Below the pieces are notes generated by a model. It had not been told where the DNA came from and searched no databases. It saw only the letters and a list, made by a program, of their open reading frames with translations. Below are positions 8,616 to 60,811 of a stretch of DNA of 64,000 nt, piece after piece. This DNA comes from Escherichia coli (GTDB taxonomy: Bacteria; Pseudomonadota; Gammaproteobacteria; Enterobacterales; Enterobacteriaceae), in the NCBI RefSeq assembly GCF_041248615.1, contig NZ_CP158426.1; one strand, given 5' to 3'. A program made the translations under genes and the position numbers. The stretch's first letter is position 1. The number at the start of each line of letters is the position of its first letter.

Positions 8616-9488
8616 TGCATCGAAAAGCATTTCTTCAGAAATAATTTTAAGTTTTGCACCATTATCATCCCTATAAGATATAGCCTTTTCGATCTTCCTT
8701 CCGTGACTAGAGAATTTCCAATCACGGGAGGAAAGCGTCCCAATTACTAAAAAATCCAACTTTTGAGTAATTCCACTACTGATGTTCCCACCAGCATTTT
8801 TAATCAAATTTTCAACTACGGCTCTCTTTCCTGCAACAAAAGTGCCTGTAAGACAATAGGTTTTACCCTCTAACTCTATCGAAGCCCCTACATCAATAGG
8901 CAGCCTGGTCGCCAAACCATCCACCACCCCACTTTCCAAGTCACATCCTGTGAAGTCTACTAATGCCTTATGTAGAGTTAAACTCTCATCTTCAGTAATA
9001 ACACCATCTTTAAGAATTTCCTTTACAAGTGCATAAAGTTTTTTTCCTGGGTAGTTGTTCTTCAAAGCTCCATTTTGCTCAAGCCACCAATTAAGATATC
9101 TTATTTCTTCTTGAGTTAAGTTCCGATCAGCAATTAATCCTTTACATAGTCCATTAAGTAAATGGACATCTACATCCTTGGAGTAAAAATCAATTTCAGG
9201 GATATCAAGAATTTCCCTCTGTATTTGGAGAAGACTATTTTTAAGGTCATCACGTTCTTCTGATGTGATTATTCCATCCGCAAGAATATCCGACACCCGT
9301 GCAGATAGACTTTTTATAACTCCATTATTGATAATCTGCTTTGCTTCAAGTAACCATGTATCTAAGTAAAGAACCTCCTCTTCACGGACAACTCCATCTG
9401 CAATGATTCCATCAATGATGCTAATCAAGTTAGCAAATAACTTGTCCCGGTTCTGTGTGTAATTAAAAGCGTAAAGCGCGTCTTCCAT
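8598..9488 (-). CDS. repeat-containing protein with C-terminal BRCT domain (296 aa from ATG 9488, GGAGG SD)
   Basis: four ~40-aa repeats with ADG(V/I)ITxEE motif, then EGKTYCLTGTFVAGKRAVVENLIKNAGGNISSGITQKLDFLVIG resembling the LigA-type BRCT fold. Confidence 0.55.
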   Translation of the reverse strand: MEDALYAFNYTQNRDKLFANLISIIDGIIADGVVREEEVLYLDTWLLEAKQIINNGVIKSLSARVSDILADGIITSEERDDLKNSLLQIQREILDIPEIDFYSKDVDVHLLNGLCKGLIADRNLTQEEIRYLNWWLEQNGALKNNYPGKKLYALVKEILKDGVITEDESLTLHKALVDFTGCDLESGVVDGLATRLPIDVGASIELEGKTYCLTGTFVAGKRAVVENLIKNAGGNISSGITQKLDFLVIGTLSSRDWKFSSHGRKIEKAISYRDDNGAKLKIISEEMLFDALPSSR

Positions 9489-9545
9489 ACAACCTCCTTT
9501 TTTTGATAATCCTTGCACTCCTTGGCTACTCGTTCAAACCACATA

Positions 9546-9595
9546 AAGTTGTTGACAACATTCAAAACCACAACTAAATTACAACTTAAAGGTGT
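9546..9595 (+). promoter_or_regulatory. second operator/promoter region (OL-like): -35 TTGACA (9552..9557), 17 bp, -10 TAAATT (9575..9580) overlapped by the same heptamer repeats
   Basis: AAGTTGT 9546, ACAACAT 9555, ACAACTA 9570, ACAACTT 9581, and ACAACTT-AA-AGGTGTT 16-mer shared with the 7860 region. Confidence 0.45.
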
Positions 9596-9712
9596 TAAGA
9601 CAACGAACAGGCAGGACGCCCACGAAGTAGCCGCTTGGGGCATATGAAGTCCAGGATGATTCGTTGAGTCATGTTGTGCCACTAGGCACTCATGTTAAAG
9701 CAGGTGTATGAA

Positions 9713-9988
9713 ATGAAAGTCCAGATTTTAAACAATAACTGTGAAGTCGTTTGGTCATACGACATAGCCGCCCCTGTAGATCAGAGCGGCGATAGCTGGA
9801 CCAATGGGAAACATCAGATTATGGCTGGAGTTGTGTTCTCTTTACGCCGTGCTTTGGAACAGGCTGAAGTATTTCCATCAGACCCTGAATGGAAATGGCC
9901 TTTTTCTATTTGTCCAAATTCGGAGAGCACATTTCAGAAAATTGGTCAGAAAGTCGCACTCGAAGAGCATCAGCCAACTGTTTCCTGA
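9713..9988 (+). CDS. hypothetical small protein (91 aa from ATG 9713; AGGTG SD)
   Basis: ORF downstream of the OL-like promoter; overlaps a convergent ORF; no family recognised. Confidence 0.25.
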   Translation: MKVQILNNNCEVVWSYDIAAPVDQSGDSWTNGKHQIMAGVVFSLRRALEQAEVFPSDPEWKWPFSICPNSESTFQKIGQKVALEEHQPTVS

Positions 9989-10151
9989 TTTTTTCAGGTA
10001 ACTCGTCGGCATCGCAGAAACAACAACGCTCGATCATGTTGAAAGCCGATTCGTAGAACTGTTTCTGCTGAGTGTCGCTGAGACAGGAAAAGAGCGACGT
10101 TACGATGATTTTATTAATTGCATTATCAAATTCTTTTTCATCAAAAGTCAT
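9906..10151 (-). CDS. hypothetical small protein (81 aa)
   Basis: ORF with AGGA SD 7 nt upstream of ATG 10151; no family recognised. Confidence 0.35.
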   Translation of the reverse strand: MTFDEKEFDNAINKIIVTSLFSCLSDTQQKQFYESAFNMIERCCFCDADELPEKIRKQLADALRVRLSDQFSEMCSPNLDK

Positions 10152-10406
10152 TTGATTTTCCTTTTATGTATACGGGCTTAAAAGGATACCACCGAGCCTG
10201 AAGTGGTGAAAAGACAGGCACATAACAGCTAAGTATTTTCAACCAAAGAGAATCCTTAGCGTTGTGGTGAATGCGGCTCAGCGCACGCGGGTTAAGGTTG
10301 AGGCTGACAGTCGACCTTCTGTGGATACCCACCCGCCTGGTGTGCAACCTTCGCCAGGCACCGGGAGGCACCCGGCACCACAACTTTATGCTGTGTGTAG
10401 TCTTGG

Positions 10407-10452
10407 CGGTACCAGTTTGTACACTTGCTTCCGGCTGGTACCGCTCTTTTTA
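10407..10452 (+). terminator. strong hairpin plus T-run at the end of a GC-rich structured non-coding stretch
   Basis: CGGTACCAG (10407..10415) pairs with CTGGTACCG (10435..10443), 19-nt loop, then CTCTTTTTA. Confidence 0.4.
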
Positions 10453-10588
10453 CAAAACAGAGAAGAGCATCACCGGACGACGGGCTCATAACCCAATCCA
10501 TCCGGGCGGCTGCCACCGCAGGTGTTCTTCTCTGTTTTGTGGAGAAACCAACCGACCTTGCAGGGTCGATATGATGAGGAGCAGCAAA

Positions 10589-10951
10589 ATGGCTAGCGAA
10601 CGCAGTACTGATGTGCAGGCATTTATCGGGGAGCTGGACGGCGGCGTATTTGAAACCAAAATCGGCGCAGTTCTCAGTGAAGTCGCTTCCGGTGTTATGA
10701 ACACGAAAACCAAAGGTAAGGTCTCACTCAACCTGGAAATCGAACCATTTGATGAGAACCGTGTGAAAATCAAACACAAACTCTCATATGTTCGCCCGAC
10801 TAACCGCGGGAAAATTTCCGAAGAAGACACCACCGAAACGCCGATGTATGTCAATCGCGGTGGTCGCCTGACTATTCTGCAGGAAGACCAGGGACAGTTA
10901 CTGACTCTTGCCGGTGAACCTGACGGAAAACTCCGCGCAGCAGGTCGTTAA
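10589..10951 (+). CDS. hypothetical prophage early protein (YfdP-like by position; 120 aa from ATG 10589, AGGAG SD)
   Basis: ORF-track 226-aa frame trimmed to the first ATG with a good SD; lies upstream of yfdQRS-like genes. Confidence 0.45.
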   Translation: MASERSTDVQAFIGELDGGVFETKIGAVLSEVASGVMNTKTKGKVSLNLEIEPFDENRVKIKHKLSYVRPTNRGKISEEDTTETPMYVNRGGRLTILQEDQGQLLTLAGEPDGKLRAAGR

Positions 10952-11044
10952 TATCGTTTTTAATTAACTGATTATTTATCTCATCACTGGGTGATGCTGC
11001 CAACTTACTGATTTAGTGTATGATGGTGTTTTTGAGGTGCTCCA

Positions 11045-11320
11045 GTGGCTTCTGTTTCTATCAGCTGTCCCTCCTGTTCAGCTACTGACGGGGTGGTGCG
11101 TAACGGCAAAAGCACCGCCGGACATCAGCGCTATCTCTGCTCTCACTGCCGTAAAACATGGCAACTGCAGTTCACTTACACCGCTTCTCAACCCGGTACG
11201 CACCAGAAAATCATTGATATGGCCATGAATGGCGTTGGATGCCGGGCAACCGCCCGCATTATGGGCGTTGGCCTCAACACGATTTTCCGCCATTTAAAAA
11301 ACTCAGGCCGCAGTCGGTAA
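11045..11320 (+). CDS. insA: IS1 InsA
   Basis: 91 aa [40 protein letters not shown]... Confidence 0.95.
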
Positions 11321-11742
11321 CCTCGCGCATACAGCCGGGCAGTGACGTCATCGTCTGCGCGGAAATGGACGAACAGTGGGGATACGTCGGGGCTAAATCG
11401 CGCCAGCGCTGGCTGTTTTACGCGTATGACAGGCTCCGGAAGACGGTTGTTGCGCACGTATTCGGTGAACGCACTATGGCGACGCTGGGGCGTCTTATGA
11501 GCCTGCTGTCACCCTTTGACGTGGTGATATGGATGACGGATGGCTGGCCGCTGTATGAATCCCGCCTGAAGGGAAAGCTGCACGTAATCAGCAAGCGATA
11601 TACGCAGCGAATTGAGCGGCATAACCTGAATCTGAGGCAGCACCTGGCACGGCTGGGACGGAAGTCGCTGTCGTTCTCAAAATCGGTGGAGCTGCATGAC
11701 AAAGTCATCGGGCATTATCTGAACATAAAACACTATCAATAA
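11239..11742 (+). CDS. insB: IS1 InsB reading frame (expressed as InsAB' by -1 frameshift)
   Basis: 167-aa frame matching recalled IS1 InsB. Confidence 0.9.
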
Positions 11743-11792
11743 GTTGGAGTCATTACCCATCACTGAATATCTTTATATAGTGAGGACTTATT

Positions 11793-14484: not shown

Positions 14485-15693
14485 ATGGACGAAAAACAGT
14501 TACAGGCTCTGGCTAACGAACTGGCCAAAAACCTCAAAACCCCTGAAGACCTCAGTCAGTTTGATCGGCTGCTGAAAAAGCTCAGCGTTGAAGCCGCTCT
14601 CAATGCAGAGATGACACACCATCTTGGGTATGAGAAAAATCAGTCCAGACCAGGAGCTAACTCCCGCAACGGTTATTCCACAAAGACCGTTATCACAGGC
14701 GACGGTCCACTGGAACTGCGTACTCCGCGCGATCGTGACGGTACCTTCGAACCACAACTGGTAAAGAAAAATCAGACCCGTATTACCGGGATGGATAACC
14801 AGATCCTCTCGTTGTATGCCAAAGGGATGACCACCCGTGAGATAGCCGCTGCGTTCAAAGAACTGTATGACGCAGATGTTTCACCGGCACTGATATCAAA
14901 GGTTACCGATGCCGTGATGGAGCAGGTTGTAGAATGGCAAAACCGACCACTGGATGCTGTTTACCCCATTGTTTATCTTGACTGTATCGTCCTGAAAGTT
15001 CGGCAGGACAGTCGCATCATCAACAAATCGGTGTTCCTGGCACTGGGCATCAATATCGAAGGTCAGAAAGAACTGCTGGGTATGTGGCTGGCCGAAAATG
15101 AAGGGGCGAAGTTCTGGCTCAATGTGCTGACTGAACTGAAAAACCGCGGTCTGAACGATATCCTCATCGCCTGTGTGGATGGCCTGAAAGGCTTCCCGGA
15201 TGCCATCAACACAGTATATCCGAAGGCCCGCATCCAGTTATGCATCGTGCATATGGTGCGCAACAGCCTGCGCTTCGTGTCATGGAAGGACTACAAAGCC
15301 GTCACTCGCGACCTGAAAGCGATTTATCAGGCTCCCACGGAAGAGGCAGGTCAGCAGGCACTGGAAGCGTTCGCTGCGGCCTGGGACAGTCGCTATCCTC
15401 AGATAAGCCGAAGCTGGCAGGCTAACTGGCCGAATCTTGCCACGTTCTTCGCTTATCCAACGGACATCCGCAAAGTGATCTATACGACGAATGCCATCGA
15501 GTCGCTAAACAGCGTGATCCGCCATGCGATCAAAAAGCGTAAAGTGTTCCCGACAGACGACTCGGTGAAAAAAGTGGTGTGGCTGGCAATCCAGTCTGCG
15601 TCCCAGAAATGGACGATGCCGTTGAAGGACTGGCGAATGGCAATGAGCCGCTTTATTATCGAGTTCGGTGACCGCCTGGACGGTCACTTCTGA
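14485..15693 (+). CDS. IS256-family (Mutator-type) transposase
   Basis: 402 aa; IS256-family transposase architecture recognised from recall; terminal inverted repeats of the element not resolved by eye. Confidence 0.85.
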   Translation: MDEKQLQALANELAKNLKTPEDLSQFDRLLKKLSVEAALNAEMTHHLGYEKNQSRPGANSRNGYSTKTVITGDGPLELRTPRDRDGTFEPQLVKKNQTRITGMDNQILSLYAKGMTTREIAAAFKELYDADVSPALISKVTDAVMEQVVEWQNRPLDAVYPIVYLDCIVLKVRQDSRIINKSVFLALGINIEGQKELLGMWLAENEGAKFWLNVLTELKNRGLNDILIACVDGLKGFPDAINTVYPKARIQLCIVHMVRNSLRFVSWKDYKAVTRDLKAIYQAPTEEAGQQALEAFAAAWDSRYPQISRSWQANWPNLATFFAYPTDIRKVIYTTNAIESLNSVIRHAIKKRKVFPTDDSVKKVVWLAIQSASQKWTMPLKDWRMAMSRFIIEFGDRLDGHF

Positions 15694-44153: not shown

Positions 44154-45530
44154 ATGAGCGACACCTCACCTGCCATACCGGAAAGTATCGATCCGGCAAA
44201 TCAGCATAAAACGCTGACTGCCGGACAACAGGCGGTTATTAAGAAGCTATTTCGCCGCCTGATCGTCTTTCTGTTCGTGCTGTTTATCTTCTCGTTCCTT
44301 GATCGCATCAACATCGGCTTTGCCGGGCTAACGATGGGACGCGACCTCGGTCTGAGCGCCACCATGTTTGGCCTCGCCACCACCCTGTTCTATGCCGCTT
44401 ATGTCATCTTCGGCATTCCCAGCAACATTATGCTGAGTATTGTCGGTGCGCGGCGCTGGATCGCCACCATCATGGTGCTCTGGGGCATCGCCTCTACGGC
44501 CACCATGTTTGCCACTGGCCCCACCAGCTTATACGTACTGCGTATACTGGTTGGCATTACCGAAGCCGGCTTTCTGCCTGGCATTCTGCTGTATTTAACC
44601 TTCTGGTTTCCGGCCTATTTCCGCGCCCGTGCCAACGCCTTGTTTATGGTAGCAATGCCGGTAACGACAGCGCTGGGATCGATCGTTTCCGGCTACATTT
44701 TGTCGCTGGATGGCGTAATGGCATTAAAAGGCTGGCAGTGGCTGTTTTTGCTGGAAGGCTTCCCGTCGGTATTACTCGGCGTCATGGTGTGGTTCTGGCT
44801 TGATGACTCACCGGACAAAGCTAAGTGGCTGACGAAAGAAGACAAAAAATGCCTGCAAGAGATGATGGATAACGATCGTCTGACGCTGGTTCAGCCAGAG
44901 GGAGCCATCAGTCACCACGCCATGCAACAACGCAGCATGTGGCGGGAGATCTTCACTCCGGTGGTGATGATGTATACCCTGGCGTATTTCTGCCTGACCA
45001 ACACACTTAGTGCAATCAGCATCTGGACACCGCAGATCCTACAAAGCTTTAATCAGGGCAGCAGTAATATCACCATCGGCCTGCTGGCCGCCGTACCGCA
45101 GATTTGTACCATTCTCGGGATGATCTACTGGAGCCGTCACTCAGATCGCCGCCAGGAACGAAGGCATCACACCGCCCTTCCTTATTTGTTCGCTGCCGCT
45201 GGTTGGTTACTGGCTTCGGCAACTGATCACAACATGATCCAGATGCTGGGGATCATTATGGCTTCGACCGGATCATTCAGCGCAATGGCGATTTTCTGGA
45301 CAACACCGGATCAGTCCATCAGCCTGCGGGCACGAGCGATCGGTATTGCGGTGATCAACGCCACTGGCAACATTGGTTCAGCGTTAAGTCCGTTTATAAT
45401 CGGCTGGTTGAAAGATCTGACCGGCAGCTTTAACAGTGGATTGTGGTTTGTTGCCGCGCTGCTGGTGATTGGTGCGGGGATTATCTGGGCAATTCCAATG
45501 CAGTCCTCCCGTCCGCGAGCGACCCCGTAA
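44154..45530 (+). CDS. hpaX: MFS 4-hydroxyphenylacetate permease HpaX
   Basis: 458 aa, 12-TM MFS in the hpa cluster. Confidence 0.9.
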   Translation: MSDTSPAIPESIDPANQHKTLTAGQQAVIKKLFRRLIVFLFVLFIFSFLDRINIGFAGLTMGRDLGLSATMFGLATTLFYAAYVIFGIPSNIMLSIVGARRWIATIMVLWGIASTATMFATGPTSLYVLRILVGITEAGFLPGILLYLTFWFPAYFRARANALFMVAMPVTTALGSIVSGYILSLDGVMALKGWQWLFLLEGFPSVLLGVMVWFWLDDSPDKAKWLTKEDKKCLQEMMDNDRLTLVQPEGAISHHAMQQRSMWREIFTPVVMMYTLAYFCLTNTLSAISIWTPQILQSFNQGSSNITIGLLAAVPQICTILGMIYWSRHSDRRQERRHHTALPYLFAAAGWLLASATDHNMIQMLGIIMASTGSFSAMAIFWTTPDQSISLRARAIGIAVINATGNIGSALSPFIIGWLKDLTGSFNSGLWFVAALLVIGAGIIWAIPMQSSRPRATP

Positions 45531-60396: not shown

Positions 60397-60473
60397 TTAG
60401 CGCGGTGCGGATGTGCGCCAACACACCCACACCGCTCATCACAATCCCTATTTCACGAGAATAGTAATCATGA
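60397..60473 (-). ncRNA. symR: SymR antisense sRNA (approximate position, inferred from symE)
   Basis: in K-12 the ~77-nt SymR is encoded antisense over the symE 5' UTR and start codon; coordinates are by analogy, not read from a conserved sequence. Confidence 0.3.
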
Positions 60474-60811
60474 CTGACACGCATTCTATTGCACAACCGT
60501 TCGAAGCAGAAGTCTCCCCGGCAAATAACCGTCAATTAACCGTGAGTTATGCGAGCCGCTACCCGGATTACAGCCGTATTCCCGCCATCACCCTGAAAGG
60601 TCAGTGGCTGGAAGCTGCCGGTTTTGCCACCGGCACGGCGGTAGATGTCAAAGTGATGGAAGGCTGTATTGTCCTCACCGCCCAACCACCCGCCGCCGAA
60701 GAGAGCGAGCTAATGCAGTCGCTGCGCCAGGTGTGCAAGCTGTCGGCGCGTAAACAAAAGCAGGTGCGGGAATTTATTGGGGTGATTGCGGGTAAACAGA
60801 AAGTCGCCTGA
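60470..60811 (+). CDS. symE: SOS-induced toxin SymE (113 aa, AbrB-fold endoribonuclease-like)
   Basis: [47 protein letters not shown]... matches recalled K-12 SymE. Confidence 0.9.

Follow-up and report, generated by a model that had tools for sequence, protein, structure and literature searches.

The 64,000-nucleotide (nt) stretch of Escherichia coli DNA analysed here (the window, to whose positions all coordinates refer) carries a lambdoid prophage left arm (SfV/e14/KpLE1 type), and upstream of its yfdP-like gene lies an unannotated segment, 10200-10460, that raises a simple question: does it contain a small gene, a group of terminators or an RNA with a role of its own? A preliminary description of the locus had listed it as a candidate structured RNA, and homology, covariation and a pseudoknot now fully support that proposal. 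The stretch is a non-coding prophage RNA in two parts: first a conserved pseudoknotted domain akin to STnc100 and PasD, which are small RNAs, and then a DicF-like small RNA with a terminator hairpin. The preliminary description had missed both the DicF kinship of the 3' hairpin and the annotation of this stretch as a protein gene, ymfH, in K-12.

The three stems on which the earlier proposal was built, as well as the hairpin with its U-tract, were all recovered where they had been placed, by inspection of the sequence and by a repeat search:
10335-10342 and 10352-10359, plus strand: stem GCCTGGTG/CGCCAGGC, read from the sequence
10361-10365 and 10371-10375, plus strand: stem CCGGG/CCCGG, read from the sequence
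10406-10415 and 10435-10444, plus strand: perfect 10-bp inverted repeat GCGGTACCAG/CTGGTACCGC, from the repeat search

The stretch had also been called unusually GC-rich, which is true in relation to its neighbours (G+C of 0.54-0.565 over 10200-10500 against 0.385-0.40 immediately upstream), but the value is close to the E. coli average. Folding, covariation across homologous prophages and an Rfam search had been proposed as checks, and all three came out in favour of a structured RNA. On the plus strand, 10190-10460 reached a minimum free energy of -107.2 kcal/mol, compared with -85.5 +/- 5.2 for shuffled sequences (z = -4.18), and none of 200 shuffles was as stable, whereas the minus strand gave z = -1.69 and was equalled by 13 of its 200 shuffles. 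The structure is therefore strand-specific and exceeds what chance would produce.

At curated thresholds no Rfam family was reported over the element. A sensitive Rfam scan of 9900-10700 returned STnc100 (RF02076) as the sole significant family, with the model matched over its full length at 10239-10453 (43.8 bits, expect value E = 4.4e-8). The gathering score of this family is 47 bits, and all early-left-type relatives of the element fall below it as well (29-44 bits); because the score lies under the curated limit, module 1 of the element is filed here as what its homology suggests, a sub-threshold variant of STnc100 and not a member by the Rfam rule. The same model matched the homologous place in P7, SJ46, phiES15, 118970_sal3, ST64B, SfV-like phages, e14 and the Qin prophage of K-12 (29-44 bits), and the consensus architecture of STnc100, with helices P1, P2, P4 and P5, the last being CCGGG-AGGCA-CCCGG, and a terminator, is present in the window and supported by covariation. 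A transfer RNA (tRNA) or transfer-messenger RNA was discarded, as neither ARAGORN nor Rfam gave such a match at the element.

The Rfam searches also bear on the idea that the element is a transcription-termination immunity RNA of the P4 type (CI/C4 with seqA/IsrK). Allison and colleagues are said to have described P4-like termination immunity in SfV in 2002, and the SfV record marks a terminator beside the region; the same record, however, puts its 'immunity region' label on orf37, on the other side of cro. The C4 (RF01695) and IsrK (RF01394) models found no match in 9900-10700 at E values up to 10, nor in the whole window, although they performed well on positive controls (74.9 and 60.8 bits on P4, with matches also in the relatives L156 and L158), and the C4 consensus fold, seen on P4 itself, is a different one. 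With no C4 or IsrK match at the element and matches to another locus in its relatives, we rejected this explanation as hardly credible. In the ST64B-like relatives, IsrK and C4 occur together at a separate locus (L158, 4608-4796; L156, 3020-3208), which in L158 is about 2.5 kb away from the element and on the opposite strand.

The architecture of module 1, as delimited by the Rfam match and by comparison of homologues, is as follows:
10261-10384, plus strand: module 1, the STnc100-type core of about 125 nt, defined by Rfam match and covariation
10261-10269 and 10376-10384, plus strand: closing helix P1, GUUGUGGUG / CACCACAAC, with five pairs that change on both sides among 38 representatives
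10270-10272, plus strand: junction AAU, near-invariant, preceding P2
10273-10288, plus strand: P2 hairpin, with pairs 10273-10288, 10274-10287, 10275-10286, 10276-10284 and 10277-10283, A10285 bulged and loop UCAGC
10294-10300 and 10345-10351, plus strand: pseudoknot AAGGUUG / CAACCUU, the second strand lying in the P4 loop, complementary across subtypes
10301-10334, plus strand: variable P3 region, with a local hairpin GUGG-AUAC-CCAC at 10321-10332
10335-10359, plus strand: P4 hairpin GCCUGGUG / CGCCAGGC, whose 9-nt loop UGCAACCUU holds the 3' strand of the pseudoknot
10361-10375, plus strand: P5 hairpin CCGGG-AGGCA-CCCGG, whose 3' strand runs straight into the 3' strand of P1

Homologues were collected by three pattern scans (viral contigs with the P5 motif, viral contigs with the P2 motif, and one genome per species), which yielded about 200 unique cores from Escherichia, Salmonella, Citrobacter, Enterobacter, Pantoea, Erwinia, Rahnella and other Enterobacterales, a phylogenetically redundant set; matches in unrelated high-GC taxa consisted of the short motif alone. 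Over more than 100 variants, compensatory changes were found in P1, P2, P4 and the pseudoknot. Among the 38 representatives, P1, P2 and P5 taken together were 95.6% paired, with eight pairs changing on both sides, and their covariation score of 0.310 compared with 0.120 after shuffling (reached by 0 of 500 shuffles) and with at most 0.178 when the partners were slid. P2 was paired in 100% of cells, three of its five pairs changing on both sides (CCCC/GGGG, GCG/CGC and CCUUUC/GAAAGG), and takes the form CCUACC/GGUAGG in Rahnella. P5 is invariant in the representatives, apart from a G-U pair in P7, and the dicF-adjacent subtype described below carries the compensatory form CCUGG/CCAGG. By custom parsing of the sequences, which is not a tree-aware test, at least 12 different P4 stem sequences stay paired at the same position, 1 nt 5' of P5, a single A separating the two helices. 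The same parsing showed pseudoknot partners that are unrelated in sequence and still complementary in nearly every subtype (AAGGCUG/CAGCCUU, UGGUUAU/AUAACCA, CCAGUC/GACUGG, UGCGGC/GCCGCA and, by eye, CAGUUAA/UUAACUG in P7), and for 23 distinct loops the cognate duplexes averaged -9.6 kcal/mol against -5.0 for non-cognate ones. P3 differs in length and sequence among family members, and core lengths range from 107 to 139 nt. Taken together, these comparisons point to a compact pseudoknotted domain of five helices, P1, P2, the variable P3, P4 and P5. We found no earlier description of the covarying pseudoknot in the accessible literature; the 2026 preprint on PasD and STnc100 predicted folds with RNAalifold, which is incapable of pseudoknots (bioRxiv 10.64898/2026.05.13.724894).

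Downstream of the core, the second module comprises three parts:
10385-10404, plus strand: single-stranded part, an AU-rich linker and the seed-like UGCUGUGUGUAGUCUU, recognised by seed conservation
10405-10417 and 10433-10445, plus strand: DicF-like hairpin of 13 pairs, -21.2 kcal/mol on folding
10446-10451, plus strand: C-UUUUU, directly 3' of the hairpin

A GC-rich hairpin of 13 pairs followed by a U-tract on the transcribed strand has the form of an intrinsic terminator, which a simple terminator scanner had missed at 10405-10451 owing to its loop limit of 8 nt. The Rfam DicF model (RF00039) matched 10392-10446 with 18.9 bits, below its gathering score of 48, and the e14 counterpart with 28.5 bits; intermediate loci scored 38, 41, 61 and 61 bits, the two at 61, which exceed the gathering score, carrying the seed of the window (GUGUGUAGUCUU) on a canonical DicF hairpin. 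Alignment joins the window hairpin to K-12 DicF in an unbroken series, with e14 and these intermediates as graded steps in between, and on this basis we infer that module 2 (10385-10451) belongs, in diverged form, to the small-RNA family of DicF. The single-stranded UGCUGUGUGUAGUC would behave like a seed, because it stays constant while the hairpins diverge: it is kept in SfV, e14, phiES15 and loci L147/L140 and nearly kept in ST64B and L160/L156, where the hairpins differ. Within the 64-kb window, no complement of the seed was found besides the element itself. The order of the two parts is core and then DicF-like module in the window, and DicF and then core in Qin, and STnc100-type cores and DicF-type modules are, as far as their arrangement indicates, recombining neighbours. 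A riboswitch-type anti-terminator was considered and dropped, since by eye no conserved pairing of the 3' part of the core with the 5' half of the terminator is seen in the window variant. The terminators of certain late-operon copies look similar to P2 by eye, a likeness that is not general.

Three open reading frames (ORFs) overlap the stretch and invite another explanation, namely that it encodes a small protein, either K-12 YmfH or the 75-residue product of the plus-strand frame:
10264-10491, plus strand: overlapping ORF of 75 aa, from the ORF list
10141-10383, minus strand: overlapping ORF, from the ORF list
10292-10516, minus strand: overlapping ORF, from the ORF list

The plus-strand frame is indeed open in the window, and RefSeq annotates the e14 homologue of the element as a coding sequence, ymfH. 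Among 106 unique cores, however, the ymfH frame is free of stops across the core in 28 and gives an ORF of at least 60 residues in 10, and core lengths are evenly spread modulo 3 (32/30/44). Moreover, no Pfam or NCBIfam family was found for the product of 10264-10491, the strong intrinsic terminator falls within this ORF, and the substitutions compensate RNA helices, so that a small protein is extremely improbable. The earlier judgements that only implausible ORFs overlap the stretch and that it is non-coding thus hold, the comparison with relatives having failed to reveal a protein. The K-12 e14 ymfH (locus L002, 3579-3890) is a slightly decayed copy of the RNA locus that scores 29.2 bits and lacks one base of the P5 loop. 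As ymfH is a member, with xisE and intE, of the e14 'YmfT' co-expression set (PMC12133099), the e14 copy is transcribed with the prophage, and the presence of these three genes in one set fits read-through in vivo.

How the RNA would be made is indicated by its position in the prophage, whose relevant features are:
minus strand: cro-side replication arm, first in the gene order of the prophage left arm
7929-8615: repressor with HTH_3 and Peptidase_S24 domains, from a domain search
8598-9518, minus strand: BRCT-domain gene, from a domain search
9552-9580, plus strand: PL-like sigma-70 promoter TTGACA-17-TAAATT, from a promoter scan (10 of 12 matches)
10452-10476 and 10516-10540, plus strand: inverted repeat of 25 nt (84% complementarity) that makes a long hairpin in the 5' untranslated region of yfdP, outside the element
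10589-10951, plus strand: yfdP-like gene, the first past the terminator, called YfdP in matching records
beyond yfdP, plus strand: co-oriented IS1, yfdQ, yfdR and integrase (int, 14485-15693), from ORF lists and annotation

Operator-like repeats at 9537-9552 and 9581-9596 flank the PL-like promoter and resemble the cro-cI repeats at 7840-7901. This promoter, separated from the element by a 98-residue ORF, is the probable source of the element transcript: the promoter scan gave no above-threshold site closer to the element, a layout that fits the earlier suggestion of an early transcript leader downstream of an OL-like promoter. No promoter-like site was detected between the terminator and yfdP, and since the downstream genes are co-oriented, read-through of the terminator is logically required. 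Of the terminator cluster requiring antitermination that had been envisaged, the need for read-through stands and the cluster reduces to a single strong intrinsic terminator.

The segment 10150-10600 (451 nt) is 98% identical to phage SfV between cI/orf33 and orf32, where nothing is annotated between orf33 and orf32, and it matched 2785 of 5426 complete E. coli genomes, 1813 of them with at least 80% coverage; as the query comprises the element and the start of yfdP, partial matches may contain only the DicF-like hairpin and the yfdP leader. Two other candidate signals were set aside. A promoter of its own, AAGACA-17-TATTTT at 10211-10239, has 8 of 12 matches, was not reported by the scan, is kept only in near-identical relatives and overlaps a predicted hairpin. 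An operator-like ACCACAACTTTATGCTGT at 10377-10394 matches the OR operator at 7858-7875 in 15 of 18 positions; judged from the element and its flanks, it probably reflects conservation at the RNA level and not a repressor site, because it coincides with the P1 3' strand plus seed and is largely kept in ST64B and phiES15 despite their different flanks.

Our preferred reading, held with slightly better than even confidence, is that the element acts as a small RNA source and as a gating terminator in the early-left (PL-type) operon of an SfV/e14-like prophage. To the homology, structure, covariation, non-coding nature and operon layout observed above, such a model would add transcript ends, processing, Hfq dependence and trans-acting targets. 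Upon loss of the repressor, RNA polymerase from the PL-like promoter would cross the element, and much of this transcription would end at about 10450. An RNase E-type cut in the AU-rich linker, as for DicF in Qin, may then free a DicF-like RNA of about 65 nt, which, assisted by Hfq, would base-pair through its seed with mRNAs of the host or the phage. The core may persist either on its own, as a stable RNA, or as the 5' portion of a species of about 190 nt. The hairpin and U-tract would double as an Hfq-type 3' end and as intrinsic terminator, and those polymerases that read through would express yfdP and the genes up to xis/int, the terminator thereby gating the operon. The designation of the element as a small RNA stands by homology only, its relatives STnc100, PasD1/2 and DicF being experimentally validated Hfq-associated small RNAs.

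Several observations weigh against such a role. The Rfam scores lie under the gathering scores of both families (43.8 against 47 for STnc100 and 18.9 against 48 for DicF). In a crude duplex test, which ignores intramolecular structure, the DicF-like module gave -27.7 kcal/mol with the ribosome-binding region of ftsZ, weaker than the shuffle mean of -34.5, whereas K-12 DicF reached -38.5 against a shuffle mean of -32.0. In P1/P7 (tciA) and in Qin (dicB), moreover, a core devoid of seed and terminator lies 30-40 nt ahead of a start codon, and the core must therefore have a role beyond the Hfq small RNA model. Finally, since PL is repressed in the lysogen, the RNA of the window may be made only upon induction, unlike the late-operon copies.

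The wider distribution of the core shows how varied its surroundings are. In Qin-type prophages, canonical DicF with its terminator is followed 18 nt later by a core of the dicF-adjacent subtype and then by dicB. In K-12 MG1655 this unannotated STnc100-type core fills the dicF-dicB spacer (about 1,649,452-1,649,585; L240, 1153-1286; 34.4 bits, E = 1e-5). In each of 20 flank variants of this subtype, P1 is lengthened to 21-22 bp. The 72-nt form of DicF has an RNase III-generated 3' end (PMC5069750); this published end maps to L240:1154, within the extended P1, and so speaks indirectly for formation of the helix in vivo.

Late-type copies are found 225-410 nt past genes for Q antiterminators, proteins of three Pfam families (PF03589, PF06323 and PF06530/DUF1133), and ahead of holins of three families or a nanS-p esterase; they occupy the position of the lambda PR'-tR' '6S RNA' and carry a TTGAC -35-like element. 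Two or three tandem modules of promoter-like site, core and terminator, about 500 bp apart, were seen in L112 (5010-5141, 7243-7371 and 7774-7881), L284 and L310, where they sit upstream of nanS-p esterase genes. In the late leader of lambda (about 44,770-44,960; L241, about 370-560), a hairpin module and then a truncated core relic, GUUGUGCUGAAUUAAGCGAAUACCGGAAGCAGAACCGGAUCACCA, come after tR', the relic being devoid of the P2 3' strand, the pseudoknot and P4. Among the tRNA genes of the ban operon in P1, P7 and SJ46, the core stands some 35 nt ahead of tciA and has no terminator, and one copy, in an apparent P2/Mu-like phage, stands between a tail-completion gene and a 213-residue ORF, which by its sequence seems to encode a baseplate protein. 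When 130 distinct contexts were compared, the nearest downstream ORF of at least 150 residues was co-oriented with the core in 98 of the 100 informative ones, and a terminator-like hairpin followed within 170 nt in 104.

Expression of family members is documented elsewhere. All eleven STnc100 copies of EDL933 were reported as expressed, one being confirmed by Northern blot (PMC5331693), and in Salmonella LT2 the promoter regions of STnc100 were examined by ChIP-exo for RpoD and RpoN binding. PasD1/2 are small RNAs that depend on Hfq and have been validated by Northern blot (PMC8550237), and PasD was seen in RIL-seq; PasD and STnc100 have been judged related (bioRxiv 10.64898/2026.05.13.724894).

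These contexts suggest a different role for the core, that of an autonomous RNA domain and not a base-pairing regulator, serving as processing or stability 'punctuation' or as a binder of host or defence proteins; we regard it as doubtful. The core would be excised, cap the 5' side of the downstream mRNA, or be cut by RNase III or, if P1 and P5 mimic the acceptor and T-arm of a tRNA, by RNase P, and the DicF-like part would be an interchangeable neighbour. The conservation of the core next to 3' neighbours that vary (terminators, DicF-like modules, a ribosome-binding site 30-40 nt off) agrees with this, as do the 21-22 bp P1 of the dicF-adjacent variants with the RNase III end of DicF inside it, the location among tRNA genes in P1/P7/SJ46, and the stack of P5 (5 bp) on P1 (7-9 bp), which resembles a T-arm on an acceptor stem. 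In the window, however, P1 has just 9 bp, hence no helix of the RNase III type, the P5 loop has 5 nt in place of the 7 nt of a T-loop, there is no free CCA, and tRNA models find no match. Over-expression of a 'ymfH' clone, which corresponds to the e14 copy of the RNA, set off the retron-Sen2 RcaT toxin (bioRxiv 10.1101/2020.06.22.160242); this triggering could be due to the RNA and would also speak for an autonomous core, but the effect is possibly caused by a peptide or an artefact.

A more far-reaching reading, put forward tentatively and held with low confidence, is that the STnc100-type core would be more than the body of an Hfq small RNA, namely an unrecognised, autonomous pseudoknotted domain with a conserved binding partner, a factor of the host or of a defence system. 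In many phages of Enterobacterales, such a domain would mark leaders and junctions between cistrons where operons are antiterminated. It might exert cis control of transcription or processing, or be a trans-acting protein-binding RNA, and the latter, if true, could account for the triggering of the retron toxin by the 'ymfH' clone. If the autonomous domain is real, K-12 has two overlooked copies, one annotated as YmfH and one in the dicF-dicB spacer at the RNase III cut site.

The requirement for read-through brings in one more candidate function, in which the core would be a cis-acting leader that modifies polymerase or its factors, like HK022 put, Bacillus EAR or nut, and so allows read-through of its own and later terminators. 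The co-directional placement of cores in operons and the terminator-like hairpins that follow them agree with this, as do the downstream genes of the window, which have no promoter-like site of their own, and ST64B, in which no ORF is annotated from cI (sb38) to the element, so that no N-like gene precedes the terminator; the near-invariant paired GGUG/CACC and CCGGG/CCCGG, moreover, suggest recognition by a conserved host factor. Yet late-operon cores lie between Q and holin genes, where Q already explains read-through, the Qin core is downstream of the DicF terminator and cannot act on it, and neither in sequence nor by model is there a likeness to the HK022 put region. Homology to put was rejected, as the nun-cI interval of HK022 gave no STnc100-type match at E values up to 5. 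A boxA-like motif, UGCUCUUUC, found 5' of helix P1 in flanks of the phage P1/SJ46/lambda type, was likewise discarded, being by eye the apparent 3' strand of a neighbouring helix that pairs with the upstream AAGAGCAU, and not conserved in the window. We consider a cis-acting antiterminator unlikely; if true, it would supply the antitermination needed by an early-left operon without N.

Some further features of the region deserve mention. The hairpin at 10452-10540 has a homologous segment (AAGAGCAU...ACGGGYUCAUA.CCCAAUC) that precedes the core in P1/P7/SJ46 and comes after tR' in lambda, and it looks like a second mobile RNA module. Just 5' of the element, two small ORFs without a family, 9692-9988 (plus strand, ymfJ-like) and 9906-10151 (minus strand, ymfI-like), are convergent and overlap by 83 nt; the second has a good Shine-Dalgarno sequence and, should it be real, would need a promoter overlapping the 5' border of the RNA element. 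The 306-residue protein encoded by 8598-9518 (minus strand), with a C-terminal BRCT domain, lies in a moron-like position between the repressor gene and the PL-like promoter and is possibly related to defence or DNA damage. A copy of IS1 (about 10995-11760, with insA/insB ORFs 11045-11320 and 11239-11742) interrupts the early-left operon between yfdP and yfdQ. Other Rfam matches in the window, at 516-955 (minus), 22448-22641 (minus), 22781-23103 (plus) and 60399-60475 (minus), comprise a cspA-type thermoregulator leader, two naRNA4/REP-like elements, three tRNA-Leu(CAG) genes and SymR.

The kind of RNA described here is largely known, and its window variant is unannotated or, in E. coli K-12, mis-annotated as YmfH. 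What appears to be new is the covarying pseudoknot, the linkage of the STnc100-type core to DicF-family modules, the K-12 dicF-dicB copy and the recasting of ymfH as an RNA. A structured RNA replaces hypothetical-protein calls, both ymfH in K-12 and many 'hypothetical protein' entries in phage records, and STnc100/PasD and DicF, hitherto separate small-RNA families, are linked as adjacent parts of a single recombining cassette. The long-studied spacer between dicF and dicB in K-12 contains a conserved pseudoknotted domain exactly at an RNase III cut known for decades. The near-invariant paired sequences and the fixed place in operon leaders across many Enterobacterales genera point to a conserved interaction, and the element may bear on read-through of the first early terminator in lambdoid phages without N.

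Among the known systems with which the element was compared, P4 CI and P1 C4 with seqA/IsrK are also structured prophage RNAs tied to transcription termination and occur in relatives of this phage, but have a different fold and locus and no match in the window. With HK022 put and lambda nut the element shares the character of a structured RNA that lies close to where an early operon begins and ahead of terminators, in a phage without a recognisable N gene; put, however, consists of two stem-loops of about 70 nt, the element is a five-helix pseudoknot, and there is no similarity by model or sequence. The lambda 6S RNA forms where polymerases stop at the first terminator of an antiterminated operon, and Sy and colleagues reportedly found in 2020 that StxS arises in that way. 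The likeness lies in an RNA that arises where the first such terminator halts most polymerases, and late-operon members of the family stand exactly between Q and the holin gene; in contrast, there is no sequence relation, and the window copy lies in a PL-type operon that is repressed in the lysogen.

The closest relatives are STnc100, PasD1 and PasD2, which have the same core architecture with near-identical motifs (GGUGAAU ... CACCGGGAGGCACCCGGCACCA), are prophage-borne and are followed by an intrinsic terminator. In the window, P2 reads GCG.../...CGC instead of CCCC/GGGG, an extra local hairpin is present in the variable region, the 3' module is DicF-like, and the copy lies in the early-left operon downstream of cI and not between Q and the lysis genes; unlike the late-operon STnc100 copies, which have their TTGAC -35-like element and are expressed in lysogens, it has no above-threshold promoter-like site of its own. 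From DicF of the Qin dicBF operon the window module differs in its seed (UGCUGUGUGUAGUC instead of UUUCUGGUGACG), its longer hairpin, its score of just 18.9 bits, the order of core and DicF-like part, which is reversed in Qin, and the lack of a signal of complementarity to ftsZ, but it has in common with it the hairpin base UUGGCGGUA(C/U)CAG...CUG..CCGCC with a U-tract, a repressor-controlled operon of the early-left type and physical linkage to the same core.

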